From contig CAMNFC010000001.1 in the NCBI GenBank assembly GCA_946536925.1, forward strand, positions 4,064-68,063: a DNA stretch of 64,000 bases, read 5' to 3'. The stretch comes from an uncultured Selenomonadales bacterium. Lineage in GTDB: Bacteria; Bacillota; Negativicutes; Selenomonadales; Selenomonadaceae. A program made the position numbers and the translations under genes. Shown in pieces: positions 30,090-62,066 of the stretch; the first letter of the stretch is position 1; every line of letters starts with the position of its first letter. The notes under the pieces are model-generated. The model was not told where the DNA came from, ran no database searches, and saw nothing but the letters and a program-made list of their open reading frames with translations.

Positions 30090-33000
30090 TTATTCGAATT
30101 GTTGCGTCTGACGGTTTGCTTTGATGGTGGTGCCGTCGTCGAAGGAGAAGGTGACTTCCGCGCTGTTCTGGATATTGAGCGAGCCGCCGTCCTTGAAGCT
30201 GACGTTGATTGCGCCGGATTCAATAACCGTGCCGTCGAAGTCAATCTGATCGAGGGTCGCGCCGAGGTGGATGATATCTCCGTCGAGGCCGCCGAGGATG
30301 GTGTCGTTGCCGTTGCCCATCTCGTAGTAGAACTCGTTGTGGACATAGCCCGCGACCATCAAGTCGTTGGCGTTGCCTGCGCCGCCCCACATGCTTGCGT
30401 TGCCGTTGCCGCCAATGATCGTGTTGGCCACGTTGTTACCGGCCATTTCGACGTTGGCGGTGGAGCCTGTCGCGTCGATGACGGAGAAGTCGCCGACGAA
30501 TTCGACACCGTCGCTGTAGTCAGGAGCTTCGAGCCAGACTTTGGCGGAGGTGATGCTTTCGCCGATCTTGACGGTTGCGTTCTTCTCGGTTGCCGCGTAG
30601 AAGTCGACGTAGCTGTTGTTGACGGTGACTTCGCTTGCCGCAATCTGAGCGACGGTCTCGGTCTCGGTGCCGCGGTCGACGAGCATTTCTTCGCCTGCCG
30701 CACCAACGATGCTGACTTTTTCAGTCGCGCCGGTTTCTTGACCCTTGACAGCGATAGCAACTGCGCCGTTGACGACTTTGAGGTCGGTGACTTCGTTGCC
30801 GTCCGCCATGCCGAGGTTCAAGTTATCGAAGGTCGCCTGGTTGGTCGCGCCTTGCTCGATGAACTCGAATCCAACGATGGTGTTCTGTGCGCCGTTGTGG
30901 ATACCGATGTTGAAGAACTCGGTGGAGCCGACTTTGTCTTCGTTTACGCCGCTGGGGAGACCGATGAGGACGTTCTTGCCGCCGCCGCCGTAGAGCGAGC
31001 TTTCACCGATACCGGCAATCAGAGTTTCGTTGCCTTTGCCGCCCTTGAAGATTGTCGTGCCCGATCCGCCGATGAGCGTGTTGACCGCAGAGCCGATTGA
31101 AACGTCAGTGGAGCCGACCGCGCTCGGATAATCGAGATCTTCGCCGTCCACGTCGATTCCAACGTAGCCGCTGTAGTTGCTGAAGTCAATCGCGCCGTCT
31201 TTGGCCAGATAGTAGTTCGGGACGATATCGTCGTTATCGGTAACTTCGATTGTGCCGCCTTCTTCAGCGATAGCCGCGTAGAGAACTTCGGAGCCGTTGA
31301 TGAATCTCTGCTTGACGAATTCGCCGTCTTCGTCGGTTTCAGCCAACAAGGAGGACTTGCTGGAGGTGTCAACGATTCCGAGCACGCCGTCGGTGAAGGT
31401 GTAATCCAACTTGCCGTCGTAGCTCGTCACGTCGAAGATATCGCCCTCGAAGCCGCTGTGCAGATTCTCAACTGCGTCGCCTGCGCCGCGTCCGACGATG
31501 ATCGTTGCAGCTTCACGTCCGGCTGTGTCGTCCAGGATAACGGTGTCTACGCCGTCGCCCGTGTCGATTGTGTCGCCCGCGCCAGCAAAGACCGTATCGT
31601 CATAGAGGCCGGTAATGAGCGAGGAGGCTGCCTTGTTGCCGTCGTAGTTGCCCACGAGCACAACTTCTTCCGCAATAGCCGAAGCGTCGAATGTGCCGCC
31701 GTCCACATCGGCGAAGCCCACGAGCTGACCGAAGTCATCGCCGTAGTCGTCGTCGCCGCCTCTGTCTTTGTAACCGAACAGACGAACCATGGTGCCCGGC
31801 GTGCCGCTCACGTTGTTGACAGTGATTTGCGTCTTGCGGTCGGTGCCTTCGGGCAAGGTGCCTGTGCCGTCAGCTTCGCCGCGGTCGATTGCAAAGATCG
31901 AGCCGTTGTCGAAGACCAGCAAGCCGTCTTTGATTGCGTCTTCAATGTCTTCTTTGATGTAAGGCAGTTCAGGATCGTGAATGACGATGCCGCTCTTGGA
32001 GTTGATGACGTCGTAGTTTTCCAAGACGATGTTGGCATTGGCCGCCGCGTAGGTGATGATCTTGTCGATACCGTTGGAGGCCATGTCGATGGTCGTGGTC
32101 ATCGCGCTCTCACGATAGATAGCATCTTCGCGAGTTTCGCCGCGGATAACGATTGTGTCGTTGCCTGCGCCGGTGGTGATGGACACGGAGCCGTTTTCGT
32201 CGCGGCCGTCCATGATGACAGCGTCGCCCTTGTCGCCCAGGAGGATTGTCTTGTCGCCTTTGGCCGCCGCAGAGACGATAGCAACGTTGCCGCCCTCGTC
32301 GTTGAAGATAACGGAGTTGTCTTCCGTGTCGTCGAAGGTGTATTGAGCCGTGCCGCTCACGCTGCTGAGGTCTTGGCTGCCGTCGGTGGATTCAACGTAG
32401 TTTGCGCTGCGGTCGTTGACGCCCAAGGTGTTGAGGATGAAGTCGCGGTCGGTGTTGTTGTTGAAGATCGGGTGATCAGGATCATTGTCATAGGAGCTGC
32501 GGGCTTTGCTTCTGGTCTGGAAGCCGACAACTTCGATGTCTTCTTCAGCGATCTTGTAGCCGTCGTATTCCACATCGTTGACGGTGAGGGTTTCGCCCTT
32601 GGCAAATCCGTCGACAGTGAGGATAGCGTCTTCGTCCAGGTCGCCGACTTCGCCGTCCGCGCTGATTGTGAGTTCGCCGTCGTTGTCGTCTTCAACAGTG
32701 TAAGTTCTGCCGTTGACGGTGAAGGTGTCGGTGCCGCCCGTGGTGGTGAATTCGAAGACGGTTTCGGCGTCGGTGGTGGTGCCTTCAACGTAGCTGTTGA
32801 CAACGTCGCCGCTCTTGAGGCCGGTAACAGTGTCGAGAGCCGTGCCGGTGGTGGAGGTCGCTTTGGCAACTTGATCATCATCAGCATAGTTCACGGTCAG
32901 GACGTTGCCGTTGATGATGATGCCGCTGTCGTTTTCGTCGATGTCCGCGCTGCCGACAAAGCCGTACACGCCGTCAATCGTGACGTCGCCGTTGGTGGTG

Positions 33001-34943
33001 TTGGAGAATTTGGCCGTGCCGCCTTCTTGCTCGAAGTTGAATTCGATGTTGTCATCGGAAACAACTGCGTCTGCGCCGAGCGCGCCGAGAGTGAATTGCG
33101 AAGTATCAGCGTCAGTCAAAGCAACAGTGACGTAGCCGTCCTCGTCGGTGACGGTGGGAACAGCGATGTCGTTGCCGTTGTAGCGCAGGCCGATTCTGTC
33201 GTCTTCATCGGTGGGAACGGTGATTTGGTCGCCTTTTGCAGTAAAGACGAAGCGGACGATGTTGTCGCCCTCTTGGACGAGGTAGCCCTTGCCGCTGTAT
33301 TCGAATTCGTCGCCTTCGCCGTCGGTGACAGTGCCGCCGTTGCCGTTGTCGACATAGACGCCAGCGATTCCGCCGTTCACGCCGTCAACCGTGAAGACTT
33401 GAGCTTCATCAGCAACATGAACCTGAGGATAGGCGTTTGCGTTTGCGTCGGCTTTGCCATTATAGGTGAAGTCGCCGGTGTTGACAGAGACGTAGCCGTT
33501 GACAGCCGCGGAGGTGATGAGACCTGTAGCAGGAACATTGTAGCCGGCCTTGATGATCGGGATGCCGCCTTCTTCGTCGGTGACGTTGGGAGCGGTGACG
33601 GTCATGGTGTCTTTGTCGGAAGTGAAGAGGTCGAGGTTCTGGACGCCTTCAACATTGCCGTCTTCGTTGAAGTAAATCTTGATACCTTTTTTAACATTGC
33701 CGTTTTCGTCGGTGAAAGTAGCGCGGGTACCTTTGGAAATGGCGAAGTCAAATTGGGTATCGCCGATAGTGAGCGAAGCGGAAGCAGCAGTGACTTCAGC
33801 AACATAGCCATATTTGGTCTTGGTGACGGTGTAGTTGGAGCCGGTGATGATCTCGGAGCCCGCGAGGACTTCGTCGTCGTCATAGACTTTGAAGTTGGAG
33901 TCGGTTACGGTGATAGCGTCGCCGGTGTTGACCAGGACGAAACCGGCAACGGTGGTGCCGTTGGTGATGAAGTAAGCTTTTTCGTCATTGTCGCCTTCGT
34001 CCGCCGCGTATTTATAAGTGGTGGTGCCAATCTTGATAGAGCCGGACTCAACAGTAGCATCGGTGTCGGCGTTATCTGTCGTGGGCGGAGCAATCAAGGT
34101 AACATCATCAGCCGCTTTGACTTGAATGACTGCGCCGTCTTCAGCAGCCAGTTCGCTCAAATCCATAGCGAGTTTGCCGTCGGAGCCGTAGGTAAGAGTG
34201 AATTCGCCGGCTGCGGCGCGGACGTTCTTAATTTGAATGCTGTTGTCGTCAAGCGTGAACTTGTAATCGCCGTTGACAGCGACAATGCCGCCTGCGCTCT
34301 CGTCGGTGTCGATGGATTCAAGGGTTACGATGTAGCCGTTTTCATCGAGATTTAAGACACTTTCGGAACCGAAGCCGCTAAGGTCGGCAGTAATCTTGCC
34401 GTTTTCGGACGTGTACGAGTCATTATCACCGGCACTGTAGCCGCTCCAGATCATGAAGTGACCGTTGCCGCTACTCAAGTGAGCCTGCGTTGCGATGCCG
34501 TTGCTCAAAGCCACGTTCAAGCCGCTCGAGCCGCCGAATGCGAAGTTAACAGAGCCCTGATCGATTTGGAACGGTTTGTCGTCAGAGACAGCTTCAGTGA
34601 AGGAGAAGCCCGCAACCGAATTAACTTCGATTTCTTTGTAGGTGAGGTTGCCGTCCGCGCCGCCGTCTTCTTTCACGGTGACTTTGGTGGCCACGAAGCC
34701 GAGCCACACGCCGGTGTTGTTGCCGGTGAGCGGGTTGCCGTTCTTCCAGACGTATTCGGAGCCGTCGGTCTTGGTGACTTCCGTTTTGGCATCCAGAATG
34801 TTTTCGGCTTCTTCGTCTTGATAAGTTGCGGAGCTGTCGCCCGTGGTGTCGGTGTTGTTCACAAAGCCGCTGTCGGTGTCGTCTGACGGAGCAACAAATT
34901 CTTCAAATTCAAACTCGTCAAGGACGCTGAAAAAATCATTCAT
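30090..34943 (-). CDS. Giant acidic secreted repeat protein with C-terminal RTX-like Gly/Asp beta-roll repeats (putative T1SS adhesin)
   Basis: 1617 aa, rich in D, G, T and V, with no N-terminal signal peptide. 9-residue repeats occur near the C-terminus (GGSGTTIFKGGKGNETLIAGIGESSLYGGGGKNVLIG and GGNGNASMWGGAGNAND). GGGAG RBS. Confidence 0.7.
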   Translation of the reverse strand: MNDFFSVLDEFEFEEFVAPSDDTDSGFVNNTDTTGDSSATYQDEEAENILDAKTEVTKTDGSEYVWKNGNPLTGNNTGVWLGFVATKVTVKEDGGADGNLTYKEIEVNSVAGFSFTEAVSDDKPFQIDQGSVNFAFGGSSGLNVALSNGIATQAHLSSGNGHFMIWSGYSAGDNDSYTSENGKITADLSGFGSESVLNLDENGYIVTLESIDTDESAGGIVAVNGDYKFTLDDNSIQIKNVRAAAGEFTLTYGSDGKLAMDLSELAAEDGAVIQVKAADDVTLIAPPTTDNADTDATVESGSIKIGTTTYKYAADEGDNDEKAYFITNGTTVAGFVLVNTGDAITVTDSNFKVYDDDEVLAGSEIITGSNYTVTKTKYGYVAEVTAASASLTIGDTQFDFAISKGTRATFTDENGNVKKGIKIYFNEDGNVEGVQNLDLFTSDKDTMTVTAPNVTDEEGGIPIIKAGYNVPATGLITSAAVNGYVSVNTGDFTYNGKADANANAYPQVHVADEAQVFTVDGVNGGIAGVYVDNGNGGTVTDGEGDEFEYSGKGYLVQEGDNIVRFVFTAKGDQITVPTDEDDRIGLRYNGNDIAVPTVTDEDGYVTVALTDADTSQFTLGALGADAVVSDDNIEFNFEQEGGTAKFSNTTNGDVTIDGVYGFVGSADIDENDSGIIINGNVLTVNYADDDQVAKATSTTGTALDTVTGLKSGDVVNSYVEGTTTDAETVFEFTTTGGTDTFTVNGRTYTVEDDNDGELTISADGEVGDLDEDAILTVDGFAKGETLTVNDVEYDGYKIAEEDIEVVGFQTRSKARSSYDNDPDHPIFNNNTDRDFILNTLGVNDRSANYVESTDGSQDLSSVSGTAQYTFDDTEDNSVIFNDEGGNVAIVSAAAKGDKTILLGDKGDAVIMDGRDENGSVSITTGAGNDTIVIRGETREDAIYRESAMTTTIDMASNGIDKIITYAAANANIVLENYDVINSKSGIVIHDPELPYIKEDIEDAIKDGLLVFDNGSIFAIDRGEADGTGTLPEGTDRKTQITVNNVSGTPGTMVRLFGYKDRGGDDDYGDDFGQLVGFADVDGGTFDASAIAEEVVLVGNYDGNKAASSLITGLYDDTVFAGAGDTIDTGDGVDTVILDDTAGREAATIIVGRGAGDAVENLHSGFEGDIFDVTSYDGKLDYTFTDGVLGIVDTSSKSSLLAETDEDGEFVKQRFINGSEVLYAAIAEEGGTIEVTDNDDIVPNYYLAKDGAIDFSNYSGYVGIDVDGEDLDYPSAVGSTDVSIGSAVNTLIGGSGTTIFKGGKGNETLIAGIGESSLYGGGGKNVLIGLPSGVNEDKVGSTEFFNIGIHNGAQNTIVGFEFIEQGATNQATFDNLNLGMADGNEVTDLKVVNGAVAIAVKGQETGATEKVSIVGAAGEEMLVDRGTETETVAQIAASEVTVNNSYVDFYAATEKNATVKIGESITSAKVWLEAPDYSDGVEFVGDFSVIDATGSTANVEMAGNNVANTIIGGNGNASMWGGAGNANDLMVAGYVHNEFYYEMGNGNDTILGGLDGDIIHLGATLDQIDFDGTVIESGAINVSFKDGGSLNIQNSAEVTFSFDDGTTIKANRQTQQFE

Positions 34944-45412: not shown

Positions 45413-48262
45413 TCATTGCTTCTTGAGCTTGGAGCCGACGATTGCGTACGTTGAATCGTTGACGTGAAAAGTCGTGGCGGAAAAATCTTTGAGCGTGACG
45501 GAGCCGCCGTCGAAAGAAAATTTCACGGCGTCGTTCTTGTACGTGGCTTTGAAGTCGAGGCTGTCCAACGTGAGAGTGTCGTTGTCGTCGAAGCCGAAGA
45601 TGATATCTTTGCCCGAATCGCAAAAGAATTCGTCGGCCTGTTCACTGCCCCAGAGCGAATCATTTCCTGCGCCGCCGCTGACCGTCGTTTTCCTTCCAAA
45701 AACTTTAATCGTGTCGTTGCCCGCGCCGCCGTCGACAGAAAGATTTCCTCCGCGAGACGTGATAATATCTTTGCCGTCGCCGCCGCCAATCAACGCGCCG
45801 TGGTAATTGCCGGCCGCGAAATTAAATTCGTAACCGCTGCCGTCGACGACAACTTTTTTATCGAGTGTGCTTGCCTTCAACGTAATTATTTTGTCTGTGA
45901 CGGAAAGCCCGTTTCGAGATTTCACGCCCTCGACCGTCGCCAACGTCTTAACAGATTTTTTGGAATAGTTGATGGCGTTGTCTGCGAGCGTGTAGCCGGC
46001 CGTCGTCGTCTGCTTATAAGTTGCCGTCGATTCACTGAGGCTCCAGGCTTTTGAAGTCGAAGTTTTTGTGACGTCGGAGCCGAGCTTGAGGGTGTAGCCG
46101 TCGCTGATTGTAACTTCCTTCTTGTTCAGCGATGCATCCGAAACCGTGACAACTTTTTTCTTCAAGCTGAGCCCGTCGACAGATTTCACGCCCTCGATCG
46201 TCGCCAAAGTCTCGACAGATTTTTTGGAATAATTGATGGCGTTGTCTGCGAGCGTGTAGCCGGCCGTCGTCGTCTGCTTATAAGTTGCCGTCGATTCACT
46301 GAGGCTCCAGGCTTTTGAAGTCGAAGTTTTTGTGACGTCGGAGCCGAGCTTGAGGGTGTAGCCGTCGCTGATTGTAACTTCCTTCTTGTTCAGCGATGCA
46401 TCCGAAACCGTGACAACTTTTTTCTTCAAGCTGAGCCCGTCGACAGATTTCACGCCCTCGATCGTCGCCAAAGTCTCGACAGATTTTTTGGAATAATTGA
46501 TGGCGTTGTCTGCGAGCGTGTAGCCGGCCGTCGTCGTCTGCTTATAAGTTGCCGTCGATTCACTGAGGCTCCAGGCTTTTGAAGTCGAAGTTTTTGTGAC
46601 GTCGGAGCCGAGCTTGAGGGTGTAGCCGTCGCTGATTGTAACTTCCTTCTTGTTCAGCGATGCATCCGAAACCGTGACAACTTTTTTCTTCAAGCTGAGC
46701 CCGTCGACAGATTTCACGCCCTCGATCGTCGCCAAAGTCTCGACAGATTTTTTGGAATAATTGATGGCGTTGTCTGCGAGCGTGTAGCCGGCCGTCGTCG
46801 TCTGCTTATAAGTTGCCGTCGATTCACTGAGGCTCCAGGCTTTTGAAGTCGAAGTTTTTGTGACGTCGGAGCCGAGCTTGAGGGTGTAGCCGTCGCTGAT
46901 TGTAACTTCCTTCTTGTTCAGCGATGCATCCGAAACCGTGACAACTTTTTTCTTCAAGCTGAGCCCGTCGACAGATTTCACGCCCTCGACCGTCGCCAAC
47001 GTCTTCTCCAAAGTGTCGTAAGTTGCGGTGGAGCCGTTTAAGTTCCATTTAGGAATTTCTTCGCCATCGATGTTGACGGTTTCCAAATCAGCCGCGCCTT
47101 CCAAAGTTATCTTGCCGCTGCCGACCGTGACGATGATATTGTCGCCGACTTTTTCGGCGGAATATGTGCCGGTGCCGCCGCCGATTTGGAGCGTGTCGTC
47201 CTCACCGAAGCCGCGAATCAAATCGTTTCCGTCGCCGTTCTCATAAAGAGTGGTGGTCTCCAGGCCGTCGTTGTCAATGATGTCGTTGCCTTTGCCGCCG
47301 CGAATTGTGCTGTAACTTCCTGGGGCATAGGCCATGTCGATATAGAAATCGCCGGTGCTGACGTGGATGGTGTCGTTGCCGTCGCCCGCGTCGATGGATG
47401 CCTCTTTGCCCCAATCGAAGATTAAATCGTTGCCCGCGCCGCCGTTGATCGAACTGTAAGCACCGCCGTTGGCAATGGTGTCGTTGCCTCTGCCGCCAAG
47501 GATCGTGTGATACTCAACGCTAGTAGCGTCCTCGTGATAGATTAAATCATTGCCCGCGCCGCCGTCAGACAAAATCGCGTTACAACCTGGGGAAAAGGAA
47601 ATCGTATCATTGCCCGCGCCGCCGTCGATTGTCACGTTGGAGCTCCAGTTGTTGTAAATTTCGTCGTTGCCCGCGCCGCCGTCAATCAACATGTCCGAGG
47701 CGTAGGCTTGGATAGTGTCGTCACCCTCGCCTGCGTCGATTGTCACGTTCGAGCTCGAGTCGTGGGAATAAATCGTATCGTTGCCCGCGCCGGCGTTGAT
47801 CGAAACGTTGTCGCCGTAGTTTTCGATGGTGTCGTTTCCTTCACCGCCAAGGATTGTCACGTCGGGGGGACCACTCTTTGGATAGCCTGAACCACCATTC
47901 GCAATGTAGTCGTCGCCGGCTCCCGCGTCGATTGAGGCGTTGTCGCCGTTGTTTTTGACGGAGTCGTTGCCTGCGCCCCCGTTGATTGAAACTTGAGCGG
48001 CTTGATTGTCGATGTAATCATTACCTTTGCCCGCATCGATTGTAGATTTATCGCCCGCGCTGTAGTTGCGAATTTCGTCATTGCCTGTGCCGCCGACGAT
48101 TGAGGCGTTGTCGCCGTAGTTATAAATGTAATCTTTGCCTCCGGCGCCGTCGATTGTCACGTTGACAGGATTTTCCGCAGAATAGTATCCACCGTTTGTA
48201 ATGGTGTCGTTGTACGCGCTGCCGCTGACCAAAGTGTTTGACGTGTAGTTTGTGATATCCAT
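45413..48262 (-). CDS. Large secreted repeat protein: N-terminal GxGNDxI beta-helix/RTX-like repeats, 4.5 copies of an 88-aa module, and a C-terminal RTX-like tail
   Basis: 950 aa from the ATG at 48262 (GGAGA RBS 8 nt upstream). No signal peptide. About 18 GGAGND/GKGND repeats. Four identical 88-aa repeats. C-terminus GGAGNDTIK ... GGAGNDSLWG. Confidence 0.7.
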   Translation of the reverse strand: MDITNYTSNTLVSGSAYNDTITNGGYYSAENPVNVTIDGAGGKDYIYNYGDNASIVGGTGNDEIRNYSAGDKSTIDAGKGNDYIDNQAAQVSINGGAGNDSVKNNGDNASIDAGAGDDYIANGGSGYPKSGPPDVTILGGEGNDTIENYGDNVSINAGAGNDTIYSHDSSSNVTIDAGEGDDTIQAYASDMLIDGGAGNDEIYNNWSSNVTIDGGAGNDTISFSPGCNAILSDGGAGNDLIYHEDATSVEYHTILGGRGNDTIANGGAYSSINGGAGNDLIFDWGKEASIDAGDGNDTIHVSTGDFYIDMAYAPGSYSTIRGGKGNDIIDNDGLETTTLYENGDGNDLIRGFGEDDTLQIGGGTGTYSAEKVGDNIIVTVGSGKITLEGAADLETVNIDGEEIPKWNLNGSTATYDTLEKTLATVEGVKSVDGLSLKKKVVTVSDASLNKKEVTISDGYTLKLGSDVTKTSTSKAWSLSESTATYKQTTTAGYTLADNAINYSKKSVETLATIEGVKSVDGLSLKKKVVTVSDASLNKKEVTISDGYTLKLGSDVTKTSTSKAWSLSESTATYKQTTTAGYTLADNAINYSKKSVETLATIEGVKSVDGLSLKKKVVTVSDASLNKKEVTISDGYTLKLGSDVTKTSTSKAWSLSESTATYKQTTTAGYTLADNAINYSKKSVETLATIEGVKSVDGLSLKKKVVTVSDASLNKKEVTISDGYTLKLGSDVTKTSTSKAWSLSESTATYKQTTTAGYTLADNAINYSKKSVKTLATVEGVKSRNGLSVTDKIITLKASTLDKKVVVDGSGYEFNFAAGNYHGALIGGGDGKDIITSRGGNLSVDGGAGNDTIKVFGRKTTVSGGAGNDSLWGSEQADEFFCDSGKDIIFGFDDNDTLTLDSLDFKATYKNDAVKFSFDGGSVTLKDFSATTFHVNDSTYAIVGSKLKKQ
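45951..47006. repeat. Tandem repeat, 4 x 264 bp, essentially identical copies, inside the RTX-like CDS
   Basis: The anchor string ACAGATTTTTTGG recurs at 45951, 46215, 46479 and 46743, a period of 264. The translated copies are identical apart from about 1 substitution. Confidence 0.9.
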
Positions 48263-48304
48263 AAAAATCATCTCCTTCTTTAAAACGAAAAAACTTTTAC
48301 ATGT

Positions 48305-48334
48305 ATTATAATAATTGTTTTTTTTTTTTGTCAA
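48305..48334 (-). promoter_or_regulatory. Strong sigma70-type promoter for the second RTX-like gene
   Basis: On the minus strand this reads TTGACA, 18 nt (A11-rich), TATAAT. Confidence 0.5.
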
Positions 48335-53330: not shown

Positions 53331-53421
53331 AAAAATTCTCCTTCCGCCGCAAAATTTTTACCAGAATATATAGAGAAAAATTTTTTGTGTCAAGCGTGCG
53401 TCGAGAGGCTTTAAAAAAATC

Positions 53422-53450
53422 TTGACGTTTCGCCGGCCATAAAATATACT
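53422..53450 (+). promoter_or_regulatory. sigma70-type promoter of the liv operon
   Basis: TTGACG, 17 nt, TATACT, about 45 nt upstream of the livJ start. Confidence 0.5.
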
Positions 53451-53495
53451 TTCGAAAAGTTTTTAACGCAAAAATTTTTTTGGAGGTCGAGAGAA

Positions 53496-54698
53496 TTGTT
53501 CTTCTTTAAAAAGAAATTCAAATTGGCGTCGATGCTCGCTTGCGGAATTTTGGCGGGCGCACTGTTCACGGGTTGCGGCGGAGGAGATTCTGCCAAGACT
53601 GACAGCGGCAGCAACAAAGCTGCGGGCGACGAGATCGTCATCGGCGCGAACTTCGAGCTGACGGGCAACCACGCTCAATACGGCGCGAACGCCAACAACG
53701 GTCTCAAGCTCGCGGTCAAAGAGGCAAACGACGCCGGCGGCATCAACGGCAAAAAAATTAAAATCGTCGAGGCCGACGCAAAATCCGAAGCAGCCGAATC
53801 CGTCAACGCCGCGACCAAATTAATTTCCGACGATAAAGTCATCGCCATCGTCGGGCCCGCAGTCACCGCAAACGTCATCGCCGAATCTCAAGTGGCCACG
53901 GACAACGGAATACCCGTCATCGGGCCGGCCGCGACCAATCCCGACGTCACAGTCGAAAACGGAAATGTCAAACCGTTCATCTTCCGCGCCTGCTTCATCG
54001 ACCCGCAACAAAGCGAAGTCATGGCTCAGTTTGCAGCAAAAGATTTGAACGCGAAAACCGCCGTGCTCTATCTCGATTCCAGCTCCGATTATTCAAAGAG
54101 CCTCGGAAAAATTTTCAAGGAAAAATTTGAGGCTGACGGCGGCAAAGTCGTAATGGAAGAAGCGTTCCTTGCTAAAGACCAAGACTTCAAGGCCGCGCTG
54201 ACAAAAATTCAAACCGCAAACGCCGACGTAATTTTCGTCCCCGCGTATTATGAAGAAGTCGGAAAGATCATCAAGCAGGCGCGCGAGCTGGGCATAACTT
54301 CCGCAATCCTTGGCACCGACGGCTGGGACGACAGCAAAGTCGTTGACATCGCCGGCAAAGACGCCCTCAACAACACTTACTTCTGCACGCACTACTTTGA
54401 AGGCGACGCCGAAGTTCAAAACTTTATCAACGCTTACAAAAAAGAATACAACACCGACCCGAACGTCTTTGCGGCTCTGGGCTATGACGCGGGCAAAATG
54501 CTCATCAACGCTCTGGAACGCGGCGGCGACGACTCCAAAAAAATTCGCGACAACATCGAGAGCATAAAAGATCTTCCCGTCGGCACTGGCAAAATCACAA
54601 TGGACGCGGCCACCCACAACCCGATTAAAGGCATCGTCGTCATCGAGACCAAAGACGGCGTTCGCTCGCTCCGCACAAAGATCGCTCCCGAAGGCTGA
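53496..54698 (+). CDS. livJ: Branched-chain amino acid ABC transporter substrate-binding lipoprotein
   Basis: Lipobox LFTGC. Type-I periplasmic binding fold (IVIGANFELTG ... AIVGP ... FVPAYY). The TTG start lies 9 nt after GGAGG. Confidence 0.85.
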   Translation: MFFFKKKFKLASMLACGILAGALFTGCGGGDSAKTDSGSNKAAGDEIVIGANFELTGNHAQYGANANNGLKLAVKEANDAGGINGKKIKIVEADAKSEAAESVNAATKLISDDKVIAIVGPAVTANVIAESQVATDNGIPVIGPAATNPDVTVENGNVKPFIFRACFIDPQQSEVMAQFAAKDLNAKTAVLYLDSSSDYSKSLGKIFKEKFEADGGKVVMEEAFLAKDQDFKAALTKIQTANADVIFVPAYYEEVGKIIKQARELGITSAILGTDGWDDSKVVDIAGKDALNNTYFCTHYFEGDAEVQNFINAYKKEYNTDPNVFAALGYDAGKMLINALERGGDDSKKIRDNIESIKDLPVGTGKITMDAATHNPIKGIVVIETKDGVRSLRTKIAPEG

Positions 54699-54735
54699 AA
54701 AATTTTTTCCAACTTGAACGGAAGAGGTGAGGCAC

Positions 54736-55152
54736 ATGTTCGGATTCAACGCAGCAAAAATTTCTTTGACAAAATTTATTTTGCTTCTCGCCGTGGCTTT
54801 GGCGACGAATTTTGCATTCACTCCTTCGGCAAGTGCCGACCCCTACGTCACGTACAACATCAGCAATCTGTATTTTTTCAACGGCAACCAAATAAAAGTT
54901 GAAGGAACTCTTTCCAACACGGGCGACACGGACGCCACCGTCACAGAAATTTATATCAGCTCCATTCAAGTTTGGGACGTCAACGACAATGTTCTTTTCA
55001 ACGGCTGGCTCAGAATGTCGAACATGAGCGTTTATCTTTCTGCCGGCGGAAGCACCTATTACGAATTTTACGTCAACGGACTCGAACTTCCCTACTACGA
55101 AGGCTACATGAGGTGGCGTTACGACTCAACCATCAGCTGGCAAAGACATTGA
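54736..55152 (+). CDS. Small secreted protein, unknown function
   Basis: A signal peptide (ILLLAVALATNFAFTPSASA) is followed by a ~110-aa beta-rich domain. The ATG at 54736 follows GAGGTGAGG. Confidence 0.5.
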   Translation: MFGFNAAKISLTKFILLLAVALATNFAFTPSASADPYVTYNISNLYFFNGNQIKVEGTLSNTGDTDATVTEIYISSIQVWDVNDNVLFNGWLRMSNMSVYLSAGGSTYYEFYVNGLELPYYEGYMRWRYDSTISWQRH

Positions 55153-55221
55153 AAAATAATTCGTGACAACCCGACGACAAAGTTTTAAAATCTCCTTGAA
55201 AATTTTCGAGGAGGTTTTTTT
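55150..55221 (+). repeat. Junction cassette copy A (~72 nt, carries RBS)
   Basis: TGAAAAATAATTCGTGACAACCCGACGACAAAGTTTTAAAATCTCCTTGAAAATTTTCGAGGAGGTTTTTTT. Near-identical copies lie at 56273 and 57404. Confidence 0.85.
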
Positions 55222-56289
55222 GTGGCTGAAAAAAATTTTGCTTTCGAGTCGGGGAAAATTTCAATCGCTTTTTCTTTGATGAGCTGGAACGGTTTGGGCG
55301 ATTCTCTCATCGCCAAAAAAGTTTTCGACGCGCTGATTGAACTCGCGCCCGATTGCGTCATCGATATTTTTGTCGGGAACACCACGCAGGAAATTTTTGC
55401 AAAATCTTTTTACTCCGACAGCAAAAATTTAAATCTCATCTTGAGCTATGACGAACTTTATAAAGAAGCCGCGAAATATTATGACTTGGCGTTGTGGGTC
55501 GGCGGCAGTCACGTCGTTTTTTTGGACGCGGTGAACGTTGCGCGGCTACGGGCGGCGTCGCCGAAACTTTTGGAGAGCGTCATAAAAATCGACGAATACA
55601 ATAAAAAGAACGTTAAAGATTTCGGATTCTGGGGAACGTCCGTGGCTTTTCGCAACATGATGACGGCTCGCATTTTGAACAAAAGTTGCTTTGAATTTCT
55701 TTCGTGCGACGGAGCCTTGCCGATTCGTGACGACAAGATAAAAATTCCGCTCGCCCCCGAAGTCAAACCCGTCTTTGAAAGTTTGAAGCTCGGCAAGTAC
55801 ATCACGATTTACTCGAACATCGGGCGCGACGAAGTTCGTCCGAAAGTCAAAACCTGGCCGATGAAATATCTCGTCGAATATGTTTCACGCATGAAAAAAC
55901 GTTTCCCTTCCGTCGAAATTATTCAAGTCGGCGGTGGCGGCGAAGCTTTGATTGAAAACGTCGACCGAGAAGCTTTGGGTTGCGACTTGGAGCTGACGAA
56001 ATATGTTTTGGCGAACAGTTTGTTGCACGTCGGTTGCGAAGGCGGCCTTGTTCATTTGGCGACGGCTCTGGGAACGAAATGCCTGATTCTCTTCGGATCG
56101 AACGCCGTCGAATATTTCGGCTACAAACAAAATATAAATCTCGTCTCGGAAGTTTGCAGCCCGTGCATGTACATTCTCCCCGACTTTAGAATTTGTTTGC
56201 GCGGAGCAAAAGAGCCGCCCTGCATGTTGAACTTCACGCCGCAGACCGTCTGCTCCGTCACTTGCACGTACTTGAAAAATAATTCGTGA
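55222..56289 (+). CDS. Glycosyltransferase family 9-like (heptosyltransferase-like) protein, paralog 1
   Basis: The N-terminus GLGDSLIAKKVFDALIELAPDCVIDIFV and the C-terminus LLHVGCEGGLVHLATALGTKCLILFG parallel the RfaF/RfaC motifs (GD...A...L and NDSG.MH.AAALG.P.V.LFG). GTG start after GGAGG. Confidence 0.6.
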   Translation: MAEKNFAFESGKISIAFSLMSWNGLGDSLIAKKVFDALIELAPDCVIDIFVGNTTQEIFAKSFYSDSKNLNLILSYDELYKEAAKYYDLALWVGGSHVVFLDAVNVARLRAASPKLLESVIKIDEYNKKNVKDFGFWGTSVAFRNMMTARILNKSCFEFLSCDGALPIRDDKIKIPLAPEVKPVFESLKLGKYITIYSNIGRDEVRPKVKTWPMKYLVEYVSRMKKRFPSVEIIQVGGGGEALIENVDREALGCDLELTKYVLANSLLHVGCEGGLVHLATALGTKCLILFGSNAVEYFGYKQNINLVSEVCSPCMYILPDFRICLRGAKEPPCMLNFTPQTVCSVTCTYLKNNS

Positions 56290-56345
56290 CAACCCGGCGA
56301 CAAAGTTTTAAAATCTCCTTGAAAATTTTTCTAGGAGGTTTTTTT
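56273..56345 (+). repeat. Junction cassette copy B
   Basis: Same sequence as copy A with 3-4 differences. It spans the 3' end of GT9 paralog 1 and the RBS of paralog 2. Confidence 0.85.
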
Positions 56346-57420
56346 GTGGCTGAAAAAAATTTTGCTTTCGAGTCGGGGAAAGTTTCAATCGCTTTTCCTT
56401 GTCCGGACACTTTGGGCGATTGCCTCATCGCCAAAAAAGTTTTCGACGCTCTCGTTGAATTGGTTCCGGATTGCAGGATTGATATTTTTTACAACAGTGA
56501 GCGCGGCAAAAATTATGTCGAAGCTTTTTACGGCCAGAGCAAAAATTTGAATTGCATTTTGAGTTTCCAAAATTTTTATCAGCAAAACGTCCGAAAGTAT
56601 GACGCGGCTCTTCGCGTGTGGCACATGGTTTTAATCGACTTCGCCAATGTTGAACGGCTGCAAAAAATTTCGCCCGCCCTCCTGCACTGCTTGCAAGGGA
56701 TCGACGCTTACAACAAAAGATATGTTTTCAACACGGACGCGGTCGGAATAATTCTTCGCAACATAACACGGGCGCACATTTTGGGAATCAATCGCTATAC
56801 TTGTCTTTCGTGCGGCGGAGCCTTGCCGATTCACGACAACAAAGTTGAAATTCATCTGTCACCCGAAGGCGACCGTCAATTTAAAAATTTGGGCTTGAGC
56901 AAAAATTATATAACCGTCGGCTCGAACGTGGGCGAAAAAAATAATTTGGCGCGTCACTCGCTGAAAGAATGGCCGACTGCTTGCGTGACGGAATACATTT
57001 CCCTGCTCAACATTCATTTGCCGCAAGTGGCTGTCGTTCAGATCGGCGGGGGGGGGGGTAGATTTTTTTTCCAACGCAGACTTTCATTTGCTCGACGCGG
57101 ACATGGAACTCGTCAAGCACGTTTTGAAAAATTCTCTGTTGCACGTCGACTGCGAGAGCGGCCTGGTTCATCTGGCGTCGCAGCTCGGAACAAAATGTTT
57201 GGTGCTCTTCGGGCCGACGGACGAAAAATATTACGGCTTCAAAGAAAATCTGAACATCGTCTCGGATATTTGTCGACCGTGCGTTTGGGCGTGGGACGAC
57301 GGCTCGACTTGTTTGCGCGGAGAAAAAGTGCCGCCCTGCATGTTGAACATCACGCCGCAAACCGTTTGCTCCGTCACGTGCAATTACATAAATCATCTTG
57401 AGCTGAAAAATAATTCGTGA
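56346..57420 (+). pseudogene. GT9-like glycosyltransferase paralog 2, reading frame broken at a G11 tract (phase-off state or sequencing error)
   Basis: Residues 1-236 align with paralog 1 up to QIGGGG. After the G11 run (57048-57058) homology continues in the -1 frame (track ORF 57088..57420: LLHVDCESGLVHLASQLGTKCLVLFG). Deleting one G restores a single ~357-aa ORF. Confidence 0.7.
57048..57070 (+). repeat. Homopolymeric G11 tract followed by T8 inside GT9 paralog 2
   Basis: The sequence CGGGGGGGGGGGTAGATTTTTTTT was counted directly. Paralog 1 has the interrupted GGCGGTGGCGGC at the same position. Confidence 0.9.
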
Positions 57421-57476
57421 CAATCGGGCGATAAAACGTTAAAATCCTTCTTGAAAATTTTCGAGGAGGTTTTTTT
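57404..57476 (+). repeat. Junction cassette copy C (immediately upstream of livH)
   Basis: TGAAAAATAATTCGTGACAATCGGGCGATAAAACGTTAAAATCCTTCTTGAAAATTTTCGAGGAGGTTTTTTT, then the ATG of livH. Confidence 0.8.
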
Positions 57477-58364
57477 ATGGACTTTATCCATCAACTCGTG
57501 CAGCAGTTGATAAACGGCGTGAGTCTGGGCAGCATCTACGCGCTGATTGCGCTGGGTTACACAATGATTTACGGCATCATAAAGTTGATAAATTTCGCGC
57601 ACGGCGACGTTTACATGGTCGGCGCGTATATCGGCTTCGCGGCGGTCACTTTCGGGCACATGTCGATTTTCCCCGCACTTTTAATTTCAATGGCTCTGAC
57701 GGCTCTGCTCGGAATGCTCGTGGAAAGAATCGCCTACAAGCCTCTGCGTCACGCGCCGAGAATTTCTTTGCTCATCACGGCAATCGGCGTCTCGTTTTTT
57801 TTGGAATACACGAGCATGTATTTCGTCACGCCCACGCCGCGAACTTTCCCCGAAGTCATGCCGAATATTTCTTTCAACGTGGCGGGCTTCATCATCAACG
57901 GACAACAGCTCCTTATCTTGAGCATAACGATAATTTTAATGGCGATTTTGACTTACATTGTCCAAAAGACGAAACTCGGAAAAGCGATGCGCGCGGCCAG
58001 CTTCGACACGGAAACCGCGCAACTCATGGGCGTCGACTCCGACAAAGTTATCTCCATGACTTTTTGTATCGGCTCGGCACTGGCGGCTGCGGCGGGCGTT
58101 TTGGTCGGCGTCTATTACAACACGATTGATCCGCTCATGGGAATCATGCCGGGCTTGAAGGCGTTCGTTGCGGCGGTGCTCGGAGGTATCGGAATTTTGC
58201 CGGGCGCGGTCGTCGGTGGAATTGTTTTGGGCGTCGTGGAAGCTTTGGTTGCCGGTTTCATCTCCTCGACTTTCAGAGACGCGGCGGCCTTCGCGATTTT
58301 GATTTTGGTTTTGCTGATCAAACCGAGCGGACTTTTTGGAAAAAATACTAACGAGAAAGTGTGA
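57477..58364 (+). CDS. livH: Branched-chain amino acid ABC transporter permease
   Basis: LINGVSLGSIYALIALGYTMIYG ... NFAHGD is the LivH pattern. Confidence 0.9.
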   Translation: MDFIHQLVQQLINGVSLGSIYALIALGYTMIYGIIKLINFAHGDVYMVGAYIGFAAVTFGHMSIFPALLISMALTALLGMLVERIAYKPLRHAPRISLLITAIGVSFFLEYTSMYFVTPTPRTFPEVMPNISFNVAGFIINGQQLLILSITIILMAILTYIVQKTKLGKAMRAASFDTETAQLMGVDSDKVISMTFCIGSALAAAAGVLVGVYYNTIDPLMGIMPGLKAFVAAVLGGIGILPGAVVGGIVLGVVEALVAGFISSTFRDAAAFAILILVLLIKPSGLFGKNTNEKV

Positions 58365-58368
58365 CGAT

Positions 58369-59334
58369 ATGAATTCGGCGAGAAAAAGAGATTTGGTGAT
58401 GCTCGTCTTCGCGCTGGTGCTCTACGGCATTTTGCAGACGATGATAAGCACAAAAATTATCGGCTCGTTTTGGGAGCTGAACATAATTTTGATTTGCGTG
58501 AACATAATTCTTTCGGCGAGCCTGAATTTAATCAACGGCTACACGGGACAATTTTCTTTGGGACACGCGGGCTTCATGGCGGTCGGAGCGTACGTCGGGG
58601 TCGTGGCCACCGTCAAGTTTGGGTTGCCTTTGATCGTCGCGTTGATTTTGGGAGCAGTGGCGGCCGGCTTCCTCGGATTTTTAATCGGACTTCCGACGCT
58701 TCGACTGCGCGGCGACTATCTGGCTATCGCGACGCTCGGCCTGGGTGAAATCATCCGAATCGTCATCATGAACATCGATTACGTCGGCGGCGCGGCCGGC
58801 TTCAAAGGCATTCCGCATCTGACGAATTTCACGTGGGTTTTCTTCGTCATGCTCGCGACTTTGTTCTTCATAAAAAATTTCGTGAACTCTTCGCACGGTC
58901 GAGCTTGCATTGCCATTCGCGAAAACGAAATCGCGGCGGAGGCCATGGGCGTCAACACGACAAAATATAAAGTTATGGCGTTCACGTTGGGCGCGGCGTT
59001 CGCGGGCGTGGCGGGCGGTCTCTTCGCGCACCAATTTTATTTAATCAGCCCGACGTCGTTTACGTTCTTGTCGTCGTTCAACTATTTGATAATGGTCGTT
59101 ATGGGCGGCATGGGTTCAATCACCGGTTCAATCGCGGGCGCGTTCGTCGTGACGTTCATTTCGGCGGCGTTGGCGTCCTTCCCCGAAGCCCGCATGATTA
59201 TCTACGCGCTGGCTTTGATTTTGATGATGTTCTATCGCCCGCAAGGTTTGTTCGGTTACATGGAGCTGACCAACGTCGGTCCGATTAAAAAATTCCTGGA
59301 CAAAGTTTCGGGCGCAAAGGAGGCGGCAACATGA
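58369..59334 (+). CDS. livM: Branched-chain amino acid ABC transporter permease
   Basis: LNLINGYTGQFSLGHAGFMAVGAY ... LRGDYLAIATLG. The ATG at 58369 was chosen as the start. Confidence 0.9.
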   Translation: MNSARKRDLVMLVFALVLYGILQTMISTKIIGSFWELNIILICVNIILSASLNLINGYTGQFSLGHAGFMAVGAYVGVVATVKFGLPLIVALILGAVAAGFLGFLIGLPTLRLRGDYLAIATLGLGEIIRIVIMNIDYVGGAAGFKGIPHLTNFTWVFFVMLATLFFIKNFVNSSHGRACIAIRENEIAAEAMGVNTTKYKVMAFTLGAAFAGVAGGLFAHQFYLISPTSFTFLSSFNYLIMVVMGGMGSITGSIAGAFVVTFISAALASFPEARMIIYALALILMMFYRPQGLFGYMELTNVGPIKKFLDKVSGAKEAAT

Positions 59335-59546
59335 ACAGTTACAAGTTGGACGCAATCGCCCTTATCGAAAATCTTCCCGACGACAAAGCGGAGACCGTCT
59401 TAAAAATTTTAGAAAACGTCTGCGAGCTGCTCAGCGTCGATTCAAATCGTCACGAACGATTAATCGGGCACGCCGAGGAGAGATTGGCACTCATGGAAGA
59501 GATTGAAAATTTGATCGGCGAGGAGAGTGATACCAAAGATGGCTGA
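59331..59546 (+). CDS. Small acidic hypothetical protein (71 aa) between livM and livG
   Basis: An ATGA overlap joins it to the livM stop, and its 3' end overlaps the livG start by 8 nt. It is helical and acidic, with no recognisable family. Confidence 0.35.
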   Translation: MNSYKLDAIALIENLPDDKAETVLKILENVCELLSVDSNRHERLIGHAEERLALMEEIENLIGEESDTKDG

Positions 59547-60318
59547 CAAACATTTGCTGGAAACCGTCGACGTGTCGGAAGTCTTCGGCGGGCTCAAGGC
59601 GGTCTCGGATTTTAACATTTACATTGACAAAGGCGAGCTCATCGGCTTAATCGGACCGAACGGCGCGGGCAAGACGACGGCTTTCAATTTGATAACGGGC
59701 GTTTACAAACCGACGACGGGCGAGATAACTTTCGACGGCAAGTCACTCGTCGGGCTCAAGCCTTACGAAATTACTCAGCGCGGAATCGCCCGCACCTTCC
59801 AAAACATTCGGCTCTTCAGCGAGCTCAGCGTCCTCGACAACGTCAAAATCGCTTACCACTGTCACGTTAAATACGGGCTGATTGAAACTGTCCTGCGCAT
59901 GGGTCGCTACTTCGGCGAAGAAAAAAATATTGAGGACGAAGCTCTCAATCTGCTGAAAATTTTTAAGCTGGACGAGCACGCTTACGAGGTCGCGAAGAAT
60001 CTTCCTTACGGTGCACAGCGGCGTTTGGAAATCGCGCGCGCCCTTGCCGCCAAGCCGAAACTTTTGCTCCTCGACGAGCCCGCCGCCGGCATGAATCCGC
60101 AAGAGACGCAGGAGCTCATGGAAATGATTCGCTGGATAAGAAAGCAATTCGGGCTGACGGTTCTTTTAATCGAACACGACATGAGTTTGGTCATGGGCAT
60201 TTGCGAGCGCATTTACGTCCTCGAATACGGCATGATTATCGCCGACGGCACGCCCGCCGAAATTCAAAACAACCCCGAAGTCATTCGCGCATACCTGGGA
60301 GCGGAGGCAATTAACTGA
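59539..60318 (+). CDS. livG: Branched-chain amino acid ABC transporter ATP-binding protein
   Basis: GLIGPNGAGKTT, LPYGAQRRLEIARAL and LLLDEPAAGM motifs. Confidence 0.9.
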   Translation: MADKHLLETVDVSEVFGGLKAVSDFNIYIDKGELIGLIGPNGAGKTTAFNLITGVYKPTTGEITFDGKSLVGLKPYEITQRGIARTFQNIRLFSELSVLDNVKIAYHCHVKYGLIETVLRMGRYFGEEKNIEDEALNLLKIFKLDEHAYEVAKNLPYGAQRRLEIARALAAKPKLLLLDEPAAGMNPQETQELMEMIRWIRKQFGLTVLLIEHDMSLVMGICERIYVLEYGMIIADGTPAEIQNNPEVIRAYLGAEAIN

Positions 60319-61256
60319 TGGCGTACAAGACTTTGCTCTTCGGCACGGACGATCTTTTCGAGACGCTCAAACCTTTTTATCTTAAAGCAGCGGAGCAGGG
60401 CACTTTGGAAATCGTCGCCGCCGCCGTCTTCGAGAACGGAAGGTTTAATCTCGTCACGGACAAGGTTGACACGGGGGGTAATCTCGACGTTGACATCGCT
60501 ATAATTTCTTCCCAAAATAATTTTTATGACCGAATGAAGCAGCTCGAAGCATTGGGAATTCCGCGCAACAGAATCATCGACGGCAAAGTTTTTTTCAGAT
60601 CGATAAATTTGAACTTCCCGCGTCTGCTGAACGAAGGCGTTGCTTATGATCTGTTCAATCCGGGCTCATTCAGTGATTATTCTTCGCATGGAACGATTAC
60701 CAGAATATATCCGAGAGTTTATATCACTCCTTCCAACAACATGATTTTGAAATTTGATACGGGCGGATATATGGCAGAAGCTAAATTTGAAGGAACCGGA
60801 TTAGTGTCTGTCGGAAAGTATTGTTCAATTTCATGGGAAGAAAGATTTAAGCTTGGCGTGAACGGCGGACATAATTATCGGAATGTGTCTACGTTTGGAG
60901 ATTTTGAATGGCCGTTTCCCGCCGAATTTTGGCCGCCGCAAGGTCTGTGCAAAATTTTAATCGGCTCGGACGTTTGGATCGGGCGCGGCTGTATTTTAAA
61001 AGTGACGAACCCGAACAAGCCGCTCATCATCGGTGACGGCGCGGTCATCGCCTCGGACAGCGTGGTCGTCAAAAGTATTCCGCCCTATGCAATCGTCGGC
61101 GGCAACCCCGCAAAAATCATCAAGTATCGTTTCGAGCCGCACGTCATCGAATCTTTGCTTAGGATCAAATGGTGGGACTGGGACATCGATAAGATTCACG
61201 ATAACTTTAAATATTTTAACGACGTGGAAAAATTTATTTCACTCCACGACAAATAA
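60318..61256 (+). CDS. Hexapeptide-repeat acetyltransferase (CatB/Vat xenobiotic acetyltransferase-like) with ~190-aa N-terminal extension
   Basis: The C-terminus IGSDVWIGRGCIL ... IGDGAVIASDSVVVKSIPPYAIVGGNPAKIIKYRF ... IKWWDW is typical of the XAT family. It overlaps the livG stop by 1 nt. Confidence 0.65.
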   Translation: MAYKTLLFGTDDLFETLKPFYLKAAEQGTLEIVAAAVFENGRFNLVTDKVDTGGNLDVDIAIISSQNNFYDRMKQLEALGIPRNRIIDGKVFFRSINLNFPRLLNEGVAYDLFNPGSFSDYSSHGTITRIYPRVYITPSNNMILKFDTGGYMAEAKFEGTGLVSVGKYCSISWEERFKLGVNGGHNYRNVSTFGDFEWPFPAEFWPPQGLCKILIGSDVWIGRGCILKVTNPNKPLIIGDGAVIASDSVVVKSIPPYAIVGGNPAKIIKYRFEPHVIESLLRIKWWDWDIDKIHDNFKYFNDVEKFISLHDK

Positions 61257-61355
61257 GGAGGTCAACGTGACGTTGCATCCTGTTGGGTTGACGTAAAAAA
61301 ATTTTCAGCTGCTCGCCGCGCTCAAACTTTATAAAAAATTTATGGTGGTGATTTT

Positions 61356-62066
61356 ATGGCAATGCTTGAAGTCAAAGATATCAACGTTTACTATGGCGCG
61401 ATTCACGCGATAAAAGGTATCAGTCTTTCCGTGGAAGAAGGCGAGATCGTCACGCTCATCGGCGCGAACGGCGCGGGCAAATCCACGACGTTGCGAACGA
61501 TTTCCGGGCTACTCAAACCCAAGACCGGCGAAATAAATTTCCTCAACAAAAATATCGCGGGGATGCCGGCGCACAAAATCGTTCGCGAAGGAATTTCTCA
61601 AGTGCCCGAAGGCCGAAGAATTTTCGCGGAGATGACCGTGCTGGAAAATTTGGAACTGGGAGCTTTCACGCGCTCGGACAAAGAAGAAATTCAAAACGAT
61701 TTAAAAATGGTTTTCGGACGTTTCCCGCGTTTGGAAGAAAGAAAATCTCAACCGGCCGGCACACTCTCCGGCGGCGAACAACAAATGCTGGCCATGGGTC
61801 GCGCGCTGATGAGTCGCCCGAAACTTTTGCTCCTCGACGAGCCGAGCATGGGGCTTGCGCCTCTTTTGATCCGCGAAATTTTTTCAATCATCACCGACAT
61901 CCACAAGACGGGCACGACCGTTTTGCTTGTCGAACAGAACGCGAACATGGCTCTGTCGATTGCGAACCGCGCGTACGTTTTGGAGACGGGGCGAATCACT
62001 CTGACCGGCGACGCAAAAGAATTGGCAGCCAGCGAAGAAATCCGCAAGGCCTATCTGGGAGGATAA
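61356..62066 (+). CDS. livF: Branched-chain amino acid ABC transporter ATP-binding protein
   Basis: LIGANGAGKSTT, LSGGEQQMLAMGRAL and LLLDEPSMGLAP motifs. Confidence 0.9.
   Translation: MAMLEVKDINVYYGAIHAIKGISLSVEEGEIVTLIGANGAGKSTTLRTISGLLKPKTGEINFLNKNIAGMPAHKIVREGISQVPEGRRIFAEMTVLENLELGAFTRSDKEEIQNDLKMVFGRFPRLEERKSQPAGTLSGGEQQMLAMGRALMSRPKLLLLDEPSMGLAPLLIREIFSIITDIHKTGTTVLLVEQNANMALSIANRAYVLETGRITLTGDAKELAASEEIRKAYLGG

Follow-up and report, generated by a model that had tools for sequence, protein, structure and literature searches.

A poly-G tract in a probably phase-variable GT9-like glycosyltransferase gene within a liv-type operon of rumen Selenomonadaceae

Is a gene that loses its reading frame in a run of G residues broken, or is it switched off? 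The question is raised by a 64,000-nucleotide stretch of DNA from an uncultured Selenomonadales bacterium of the Selenomonadaceae (assembly GCA_946536925.1, contig CAMNFC010000001.1, positions 4,064 to 68,063, forward strand), referred to here as the window. Two tandem genes for GT9-like glycosyltransferases lie inside a transporter operon of the liv type, and the second of them, paralog 2, is frameshifted at an uninterrupted run of 11 G (G11; other homopolymers are written likewise). Paralog 2 is probably a phase-variable (contingency) glycosyltransferase gene in its off state. The features on which this depends are:

55222..56289, + strand: GT9-like glycosyltransferase paralog 1, intact, 355 amino acids (aa), from translation and alignment.
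56346..57420, + strand: GT9-like glycosyltransferase paralog 2, frameshifted at the G tract, from translations and in-silico repair.
57048-57058, + strand: uninterrupted G11 homopolymer, the proposed slippage switch, covering codons GGC GGG GGG GGG GG(T).
57063-57070, + strand: T8 run, 4 nucleotides (nt) 3' of the G tract, from the sequence.

A sequence-only reading of this stretch had claimed that a G11 followed by T8 throws paralog 2 out of frame. Both runs can be read directly: positions 57040-57070 are agatcGGC, then G11, TAGA and T8, and the codon context is GTC GTT CAG ATC GGC GGG GGG GGG GGT AGA TTT TTT TTC, which places the tract within the conserved Q-x-G-G-G-G loop codons. The translations agree with the loss of frame. 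Paralog 2 starts with GTG at 56346, is 52% identical to paralog 1 and matches it up to ...VVQIGGGG; past the tract, homology resumes one base out of frame (VDFFSNADFHLLDADMELVKHVLKNSLLHVDCESGLVHLASQLG...) and continues to the common C-terminus, ...LKNNS, at 57420. The off open reading frame (ORF) spans 56346-57401 and encodes 351 aa, of which the final 114 are out-of-frame. In-silico deletion of one G (G10) gives the intact enzyme that had been predicted, an uninterrupted 357 aa ending at 57420. The interruption said to protect the other copy is also there. Paralog 1 encodes its GGGG as GGC GGT GGC GGC (GGCGGTGGCGGC, 55930-55941), and these codons are not slippage-prone.

The tract stands out in its surroundings. 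The other G and C homopolymers of the window reach 6 at most, while the longest A and T runs are 9 and 12. GGG makes up 10% of the Gly codons in the window, and the other runs of at least three Gly codons (11 of 11) use GGC, GGA or GGT and never GGG. The neighbouring T8 is not kept in relatives. By in-silico editing, loss of one base from it would also re-frame the G11 allele, at the cost of just V238G and D239R. A minus-strand ORF at 57007-57423 was discarded as a meaningful gene; throughout the family, an open codon-aligned antisense frame is common.

If the tract is a switch, its length should be expected to differ between relatives. Uninterrupted G tracts occur at the same Gly-loop codon site in at least nine gene lineages of the GT9-like family in rumen Selenomonadaceae, in both paralog clades. 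Lengths of G7, G8 and G10 are found in frame and lengths of G8, G9, G10, G11 and G12 out of frame. By locus, the relatives' tracts are:

L003: G11, out of frame.
L005: G11, out of frame.
L004, a close relative of L005: G6-A-G5, interrupted, out of frame.
L100: G9, out of frame.
L101: G10 directly after TGC, hence G9 or G12 would be in frame; out of frame.
L074, third copy: G8, out of frame.
L024 and L084: G9, out of frame.
L083: G12, out of frame.
L017: G10, in frame.
L103: G10, in frame.
L104: G8, in frame.
L027: G7, in frame.

Two comparisons pair similar genes that have tracts of different length. The L083 (G12) and L024/L084 (G9) tracts have near-identical flanks and come from assemblies made in different studies. 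L103 (G10, on) and L003 (G11, off) encode proteins that are ~80% identical over their N-terminal part, with downstream sequence common to both. In a set of 42 distinct junction sequences, a frameshift is present in 6 of the 7 that have a tract of 8 or longer and in 2 of the 35 that do not (Fisher p = 4e-5, uncorrected for phylogeny, the sequences not being phylogenetically independent). Where the Gly codons are interrupted, the gene is almost always intact, as in the allele GGCGGCGGTGGGG of L001, the 93% ortholog. No second lesion was found in the switched-off copies, each of which aligns as one unbroken stretch on either side of the tract. The contingency-locus design had been a guess in the sequence-only reading; it now draws support from the recurring tracts and from the on and off lengths in relatives. 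By comparison between relatives, the phase-variation reading can be called well supported. Within the same set, the second glycosyltransferase copy of L017 (9148-10184) loses its frame ~50 nt before the Gly site, outside any G tract; this points to a genuine pseudogene or else to an error.

What weighs against a switch in the window's own lineage? The excess of off states among relatives results in part from the deliberate fetching of truncated homologues. Gly codons are interrupted in the closest orthologs (93%, 80% and 76% identical), which makes the tract young in this lineage. Only one other assembly, L002, has this allele; its tract is G11 too, and its identity to the window over 53346-57500 is 100%. 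No read-level or strain-level variation in tract length was seen for the window's own allele in the two assemblies compared, and its G10 (on) version is absent from a collection of 5.8 billion proteins. Truncated G9 and G12 versions are absent from that collection too, and a metagenome scan gave 27 loci, none of them a strain-level variant of the allele. When same-lineage on alleles were sought for other truncated homologues, only ~80%-identical relatives were found, two of them with in-frame tracts.

L002 was considered as an independent second strain, being 96.8% identical to the window over 7 kb. A mismatch map shows identity across 53346-57500 and divergence only in blocks beyond, so L002 counts as a replicate assembly and not as independent evidence. 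The differences over 57500-60250 are clustered in separate blocks, some in livH and others from livM to livG, a pattern that reflects either recombination between strains or a chimeric assembly.

Perhaps paralog 2 is a plain pseudogene, in which slippage inactivated a redundant paralog, G11 became fixed and the gene is decaying around a tract that is a mutational accident. G11 in both assemblies of the allele and the lack of the tract in the closest orthologs are what this would predict, an intact paralog adjoins, and L004, out of frame and interrupted, looks like a copy locked off in this way. Against this, paralog 2 has no second lesion across 120 codons, keeps 20 of 20 family-invariant residues downstream of the tract, and shows a ratio of nonsynonymous to synonymous substitution rates (dN/dS) against the 93% ortholog of 0.27 upstream and 0.21 downstream of the tract. 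The tract itself is still uninterrupted. Moreover, the design recurs with on and off lengths in those nine or more lineages and in a second gene family (see below), which is unexpected under random decay. A pseudogene is an unlikely explanation.

Could the true length be G10 and the gene intact, with the frameshift an error of sequencing or assembly? Homopolymers of at least 10 are the hardest to call, and G11 is one base away from an in-frame length. Against this, the same length was obtained in two assemblies (identical across the region), and the window's ORFs keep their frame through every A/T run of 8-9 nt within them (20 of 20), so the assembly shows no general tendency to err at homopolymers. 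Independent studies and assemblers have yielded out-of-frame tracts at the corresponding site in seven further lineages, and the 3-base difference between G9 and G12 is not a product of consensus error. An error is distinctly improbable, and a true G10 would leave the tract hypermutable: the current state would change but the mechanism would not.

The frame entered after G11 has a peculiarity of its own. This 'one extra G' frame is stop-free for 113-118 codons after the tract site in the window gene (57059-57401) and in L001, L006 and L102. Over the 233 codons before the tract the same frame holds 8-13 stops, and in other family members it has a mean of 5.4. Resampling of codons for the same protein gives an open frame with P about 0.002. 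The three closest orthologs share the open frame but not the tract, and stops do occur in this frame in other tract-bearing genes. The openness may be inherited chance, or it may reflect selection against polarity on the downstream liv genes. That it serves programmed recoding, with full-length enzyme made from G11 at a constitutive low level by RNA polymerase slippage or +1 ribosomal frameshifting, is highly improbable: G11 does occur in three lineages and the open frame is characteristic of the window's sub-clade, but relatives' tracts run from G7 to G12 with several in frame, and the idea ranks low because no tract length is conserved; in addition, only coding sequence is conserved around the tract, the open frame is also present in tract-less orthologs, and most documented cases of transcriptional slippage in bacteria are on A/T runs.

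What would phase variation of paralog 2 switch? The label 'GT9-like' of the sequence-only reading holds in fold and only distantly in sequence. Against the Pfam family PF01075 (cut-off 22 bits), paralog 1 scores 20.8 and repaired paralog 2 scores 19.9, so both miss the threshold, and the NCBIfam heptosyltransferase I and II models give ~20 bits where their cut-offs exceed 130. A precomputed PF01075 hit is present in some family members. Sequence searches of the PDB gave nothing significant (best E 0.22 with paralog 1 as query and 0.76 with a 44-sequence profile). In contrast, the AlphaFold2 model of paralog 1 (predicted local distance difference test 95.5, predicted template modelling score 0.93) has best Foldseek matches in the PDB that are all GT9 enzymes: 3TOV from Veillonella parvula, 1PSW (WaaF), WaaC and TibC. 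The top matches each have a probability of 1.00 with E from 7e-11 to 1e-7, and the best TM-score, up to 0.64, is to TibC. The modelled fold is GT-B, closest to known GT9 structures. Marginal profile scores together with these fold matches indicate only a distant GT9 relationship.

In the model, the GGGG motif comes directly after the strand E232-237, the first of the C-terminal lobe, in a loop whose Q and first G do not vary within the family. A frameshift at this point removes the whole C-terminal lobe. In GT-B enzymes that lobe forms most of the donor-binding site. Near the end of the lobe is one more conserved feature:

Paralog 1 residues 309-334 (~56146-56223; paralog 2 equivalent ~57270-57350), + strand: four-Cys module with invariant Cys.

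The four cysteines (C312, C315, C325 and C334 in paralog 1 numbering; CxxC-x9-C-x8-C) are invariant in the family and, in the model, belong to an unstructured module at residues 309-332 ahead of the last helix. TibC, an autotransporter heptosyltransferase of the GT9 group that also includes WaaC, WaaF and 3TOV (PDB 4RAP; PMC4358343), has an iron finger made of C339, C342, C358 and C370 (PMC4358343). Like that finger, the four Cys here precede the last helix, in a loop module. By this analogy the module is probably metal-binding, although its Cys spacing is different. Unlike TibC, paralogs 1 and 2 have no adjacent autotransporter substrate gene, their neighbours being liv and acetyltransferase-like genes.

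Homologues of the family come almost only from rumen Selenomonadaceae, Quinella metagenome-assembled genomes included, and most are intact at 350-357 aa. A distant Mitsuokella homologue is preceded by three bona fide GT9 genes and followed by two sulfatase-family genes, in what resembles a lipopolysaccharide (LPS)-core cluster. A specific LPS-core role was nevertheless rejected, as homologues also occur in monoderm Pseudobutyrivibrio (Lachnospiraceae), fused to GT2 or other domains and amid methyltransferases. The family is therefore not tied to LPS; in this, and in its marginal sequence similarity, it differs from the GT9 heptosyltransferases. It is predicted to modify glycans, with LPS, another polysaccharide or protein as candidate acceptors.

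Put together, the proposed mechanism of phase variation would run as follows. The slippage-prone homopolymer would be the three consecutive GGG codons plus the first G of the next codon, in the Gly-rich loop, and slipped-strand mispairing in replication would alter it by one or more G. With G10 (or G7 or G13) a full two-lobed GT-B enzyme would be made and the gene would be on. With G11 the whole C-terminal lobe would be swapped for 114 out-of-frame residues, and the loss of the lobe would turn the enzyme off. Paralog 1, with its interrupted Gly codons, would be constitutively on. Since the switch would be reversible, the population would always be a mixture of cells with and without the added surface-glycan sugar, the acceptor glycan being LPS, another polysaccharide or a glycoprotein. 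The likely gain would be escape from phages, predators or host antibody recognising the glycan. Actual switching in the window's strain, along with its rate, sugar, acceptor and selective agent, is what we infer from the comparisons above.

What is known of simple-repeat phase variation comes almost entirely from a few pathogens adapted to their hosts, namely Neisseria, Haemophilus, Campylobacter and Helicobacter. In the literature that was searched, it is not reported from Selenomonas, Quinella or any other Negativicutes. From its sequence, the locus would be of the simple-repeat contingency type, a design already known from Neisseria and Campylobacter, in a bacterial group that is new for it. 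The poly-G glycosyltransferase switches lgtA/lgtC/lgtD and pgtA of Neisseria (PMC2192423, PMC2193922) share with paralog 2 a poly-G tract in the coding sequence of a glycosyltransferase (a surface-glycan one in Neisseria), a frame decided by tract length, and tandem paralogous transferase genes of which only some have the tract. In contrast to Neisseria, the enzyme here is a distant GT9-like GT-B protein with a four-Cys module, from Negativicutes that are uncultured rumen commensals, and its gene, known from sequence alone, lies inside an amino-acid-type ATP-binding cassette (ABC) transporter operon instead of a lipooligosaccharide (LOS) or pilin glycosylation locus.

The phasome of Campylobacter jejuni, with poly-G tracts in genes for the modification of capsule, LOS and flagellin glycans (PMC6321876, PMC8437040, PMC3068675), is similar in having G8 to G12 tracts in several glycan-modifying genes of one locus, both transferases and modification enzymes, in the variation of lengths between strains, and in how common off states are in genome sequences. 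However, switching has been shown there and tied to phenotypes, whereas the evidence here consists of comparisons between metagenome assemblies, and the genes belong to families unrelated to those of Campylobacter. Helicobacter canadensis has homopolymer-associated genes with C-terminal sequence switching (PMC2823697). There, as here, a homopolymer lies inside an ORF and one alternative frame is open, giving a different C-terminus and not an early stop. Unlike in H. canadensis, the 114-residue tail of paralog 2 takes the place of an entire catalytic lobe and probably has no function, and its openness may matter only for avoiding polarity downstream, if at all.

If paralog 2 is phase-variable, uncultured rumen commensals would bet-hedge their surface glycans much as those pathogens do, probably against phages and predators. 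This would bear on rumen strain dynamics and on how frameshifted 'pseudogenes' in metagenome-assembled genomes are read. The setting is also unusual, in that variable, switchable glycan genes are nested in a conserved transporter operon. The genes and repeats around the two paralogs are:

53496..54698, + strand: LivJ/K-type periplasmic substrate-binding protein, first operon gene (Pfam Peripla_BP_6 E 4e-63, NCBIfam).
54727..55152, + strand: small ORF, 141 aa, signal-peptide-like N-terminus, seen only in the window's strain, no family match.
55150-55221, + strand: ~75-nt junction copy 1, before paralog 1 (alignment).
56272-56345, + strand: ~75-nt junction copy 2, before paralog 2 (alignment).
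57403-57476, + strand: ~75-nt junction copy 3, before livH (alignment).
57477-58364, + strand: livH-like permease gene (Pfam BPD_transp_2; NCBIfam LivH E 5e-74).
58336-59334, + strand: livM-like permease gene (Pfam BPD_transp_2).
59331..59546, + strand: 71-aa ORF, a third variable slot between livM and livG, 66% identical in L002.
59527..60318, + strand: livG-like ATPase gene (Pfam ABC_tran, BCA_ABC_TP_C).
60318..61256, + strand: 312-aa acetyltransferase-like protein between livG and livF (NCBIfam Vat/CatB models).
60473-60478, + strand: G6 run, in frame, at a site homologous to relatives' tracts; the window copy is intact.
61356..62066, + strand: livF-like ATPase gene, last of the operon (Pfam ABC_tran).

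All five LIV-I/HAAT-type components (substrate-binding protein, LivH, LivM, LivG and LivF) are matched by Pfam and NCBIfam models. The host operon, of the LivJ/HMGF type, is thus predicted to be a LIV-I/HAAT-type branched-chain amino acid ABC transporter operon, with its substrate likewise a prediction. The claim that the tract sits inside an amino-acid transporter operon is borne out, its position being between the substrate-binding-protein gene and livH. Conservation is very uneven along the operon. Across species-level relatives (loci L004-L027, L078, L079 and L084), identities to the window proteins are:

LivH: 91-98%.
LivM: 92-97%.
LivG: 92-99%.
LivF: 88-98%.
Substrate-binding protein: 84-94%.
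Embedded GT9-like genes: 46-68%, 1-3 copies.
Embedded acetyltransferase-like genes: 52-64%, 0-3 copies.

The genes flanking the 71-aa ORF are 96-99% identical in L002. From these comparisons, the operon (53496-62066) looks like a conserved scaffold with hypervariable slots. Each copy of the thrice-repeated junction contains the last codons of the preceding gene, a promoter-like GTGACA-17-TAAAAT, a ribosome-binding site GAGGAGG, T7 and the start codon, and the repetition suggests cassette duplication or insertion by recombination. Scans for terminators and promoters found sites no commoner than in shuffled sequence, the repeated junction motif excepted.

What if the conserved, housekeeping liv operon is a fixed scaffold for hypervariable surface-glycan cassettes in rumen Selenomonadaceae? 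This joint reading is tentative, and doubtful as a whole. Its slots would take 1-3 GT9-like genes between the binding-protein gene and livH and 0-3 acetyltransferase-like genes between livG and livF. Each cassette would stand behind the ~75-nt repeated junction, and many would have poly-G switches. The cassettes would borrow the transcription of the operon and be exchanged by recombination via its conserved flanks. The 'one extra G' frame would be held stop-free in the window's sub-clade, sparing the downstream transporter genes.

The acetyltransferase-like genes are the second family with G tracts. The C-terminal 140 residues of the 312-aa protein match the Vat and CatB models (E 5e-28 to 2e-26), with scores of 92-98 bits that miss cut-offs of at least 300, and its N-terminal 150 residues have no NCBIfam family match. 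By these matches the C-terminal domain is a predicted hexapeptide-repeat acetyltransferase related to the xenobiotic acetyltransferase (XAT) class, and the protein is not a Vat or CatB equivalent. Relatives have G tracts at codon ~50 of this gene, and with the G6 of the window the range is G6 to G14:

L007:13131: G14, off.
L014:11984: G10, off.
L011:12880: G7, off.
L017:15733: G10, on.
L024:12846: G9, on.
L027:14300: G9, on.
L021:12471: G13 at a different site, in frame.

G/C tracts of 9-12 nt were also seen in more distant rumen relatives (L044:4205, L046:5533, L095:2332, L085:10852, L093:4758 and L015:44). At least one of them, the L044 tract in a distant rumen Negativicutes, frameshifts a methyltransferase gene that adjoins a DegT-like one. 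Glycan genes with poly-G tracts may be common among these rumen bacteria.

Elsewhere in the window, the longest homopolymer is a T12 at 48318-48329, at or just upstream of the start of an RTX-repeat gene on the minus strand, with an A9 run 30 nt away from it. The T12 could be a promoter or 5'-end repeat. Three proteins encoded away from the operon are of interest as possible acceptors:

27888-29885: flagellin, 665 aa.
30090-34943, - strand: 1617-aa protein, no family match.
45413-48334, - strand: RTX-repeat protein, 973 aa.

The flagellin, the RTX-repeat protein and the 1617-aa protein are possible candidate targets of surface glycosylation.

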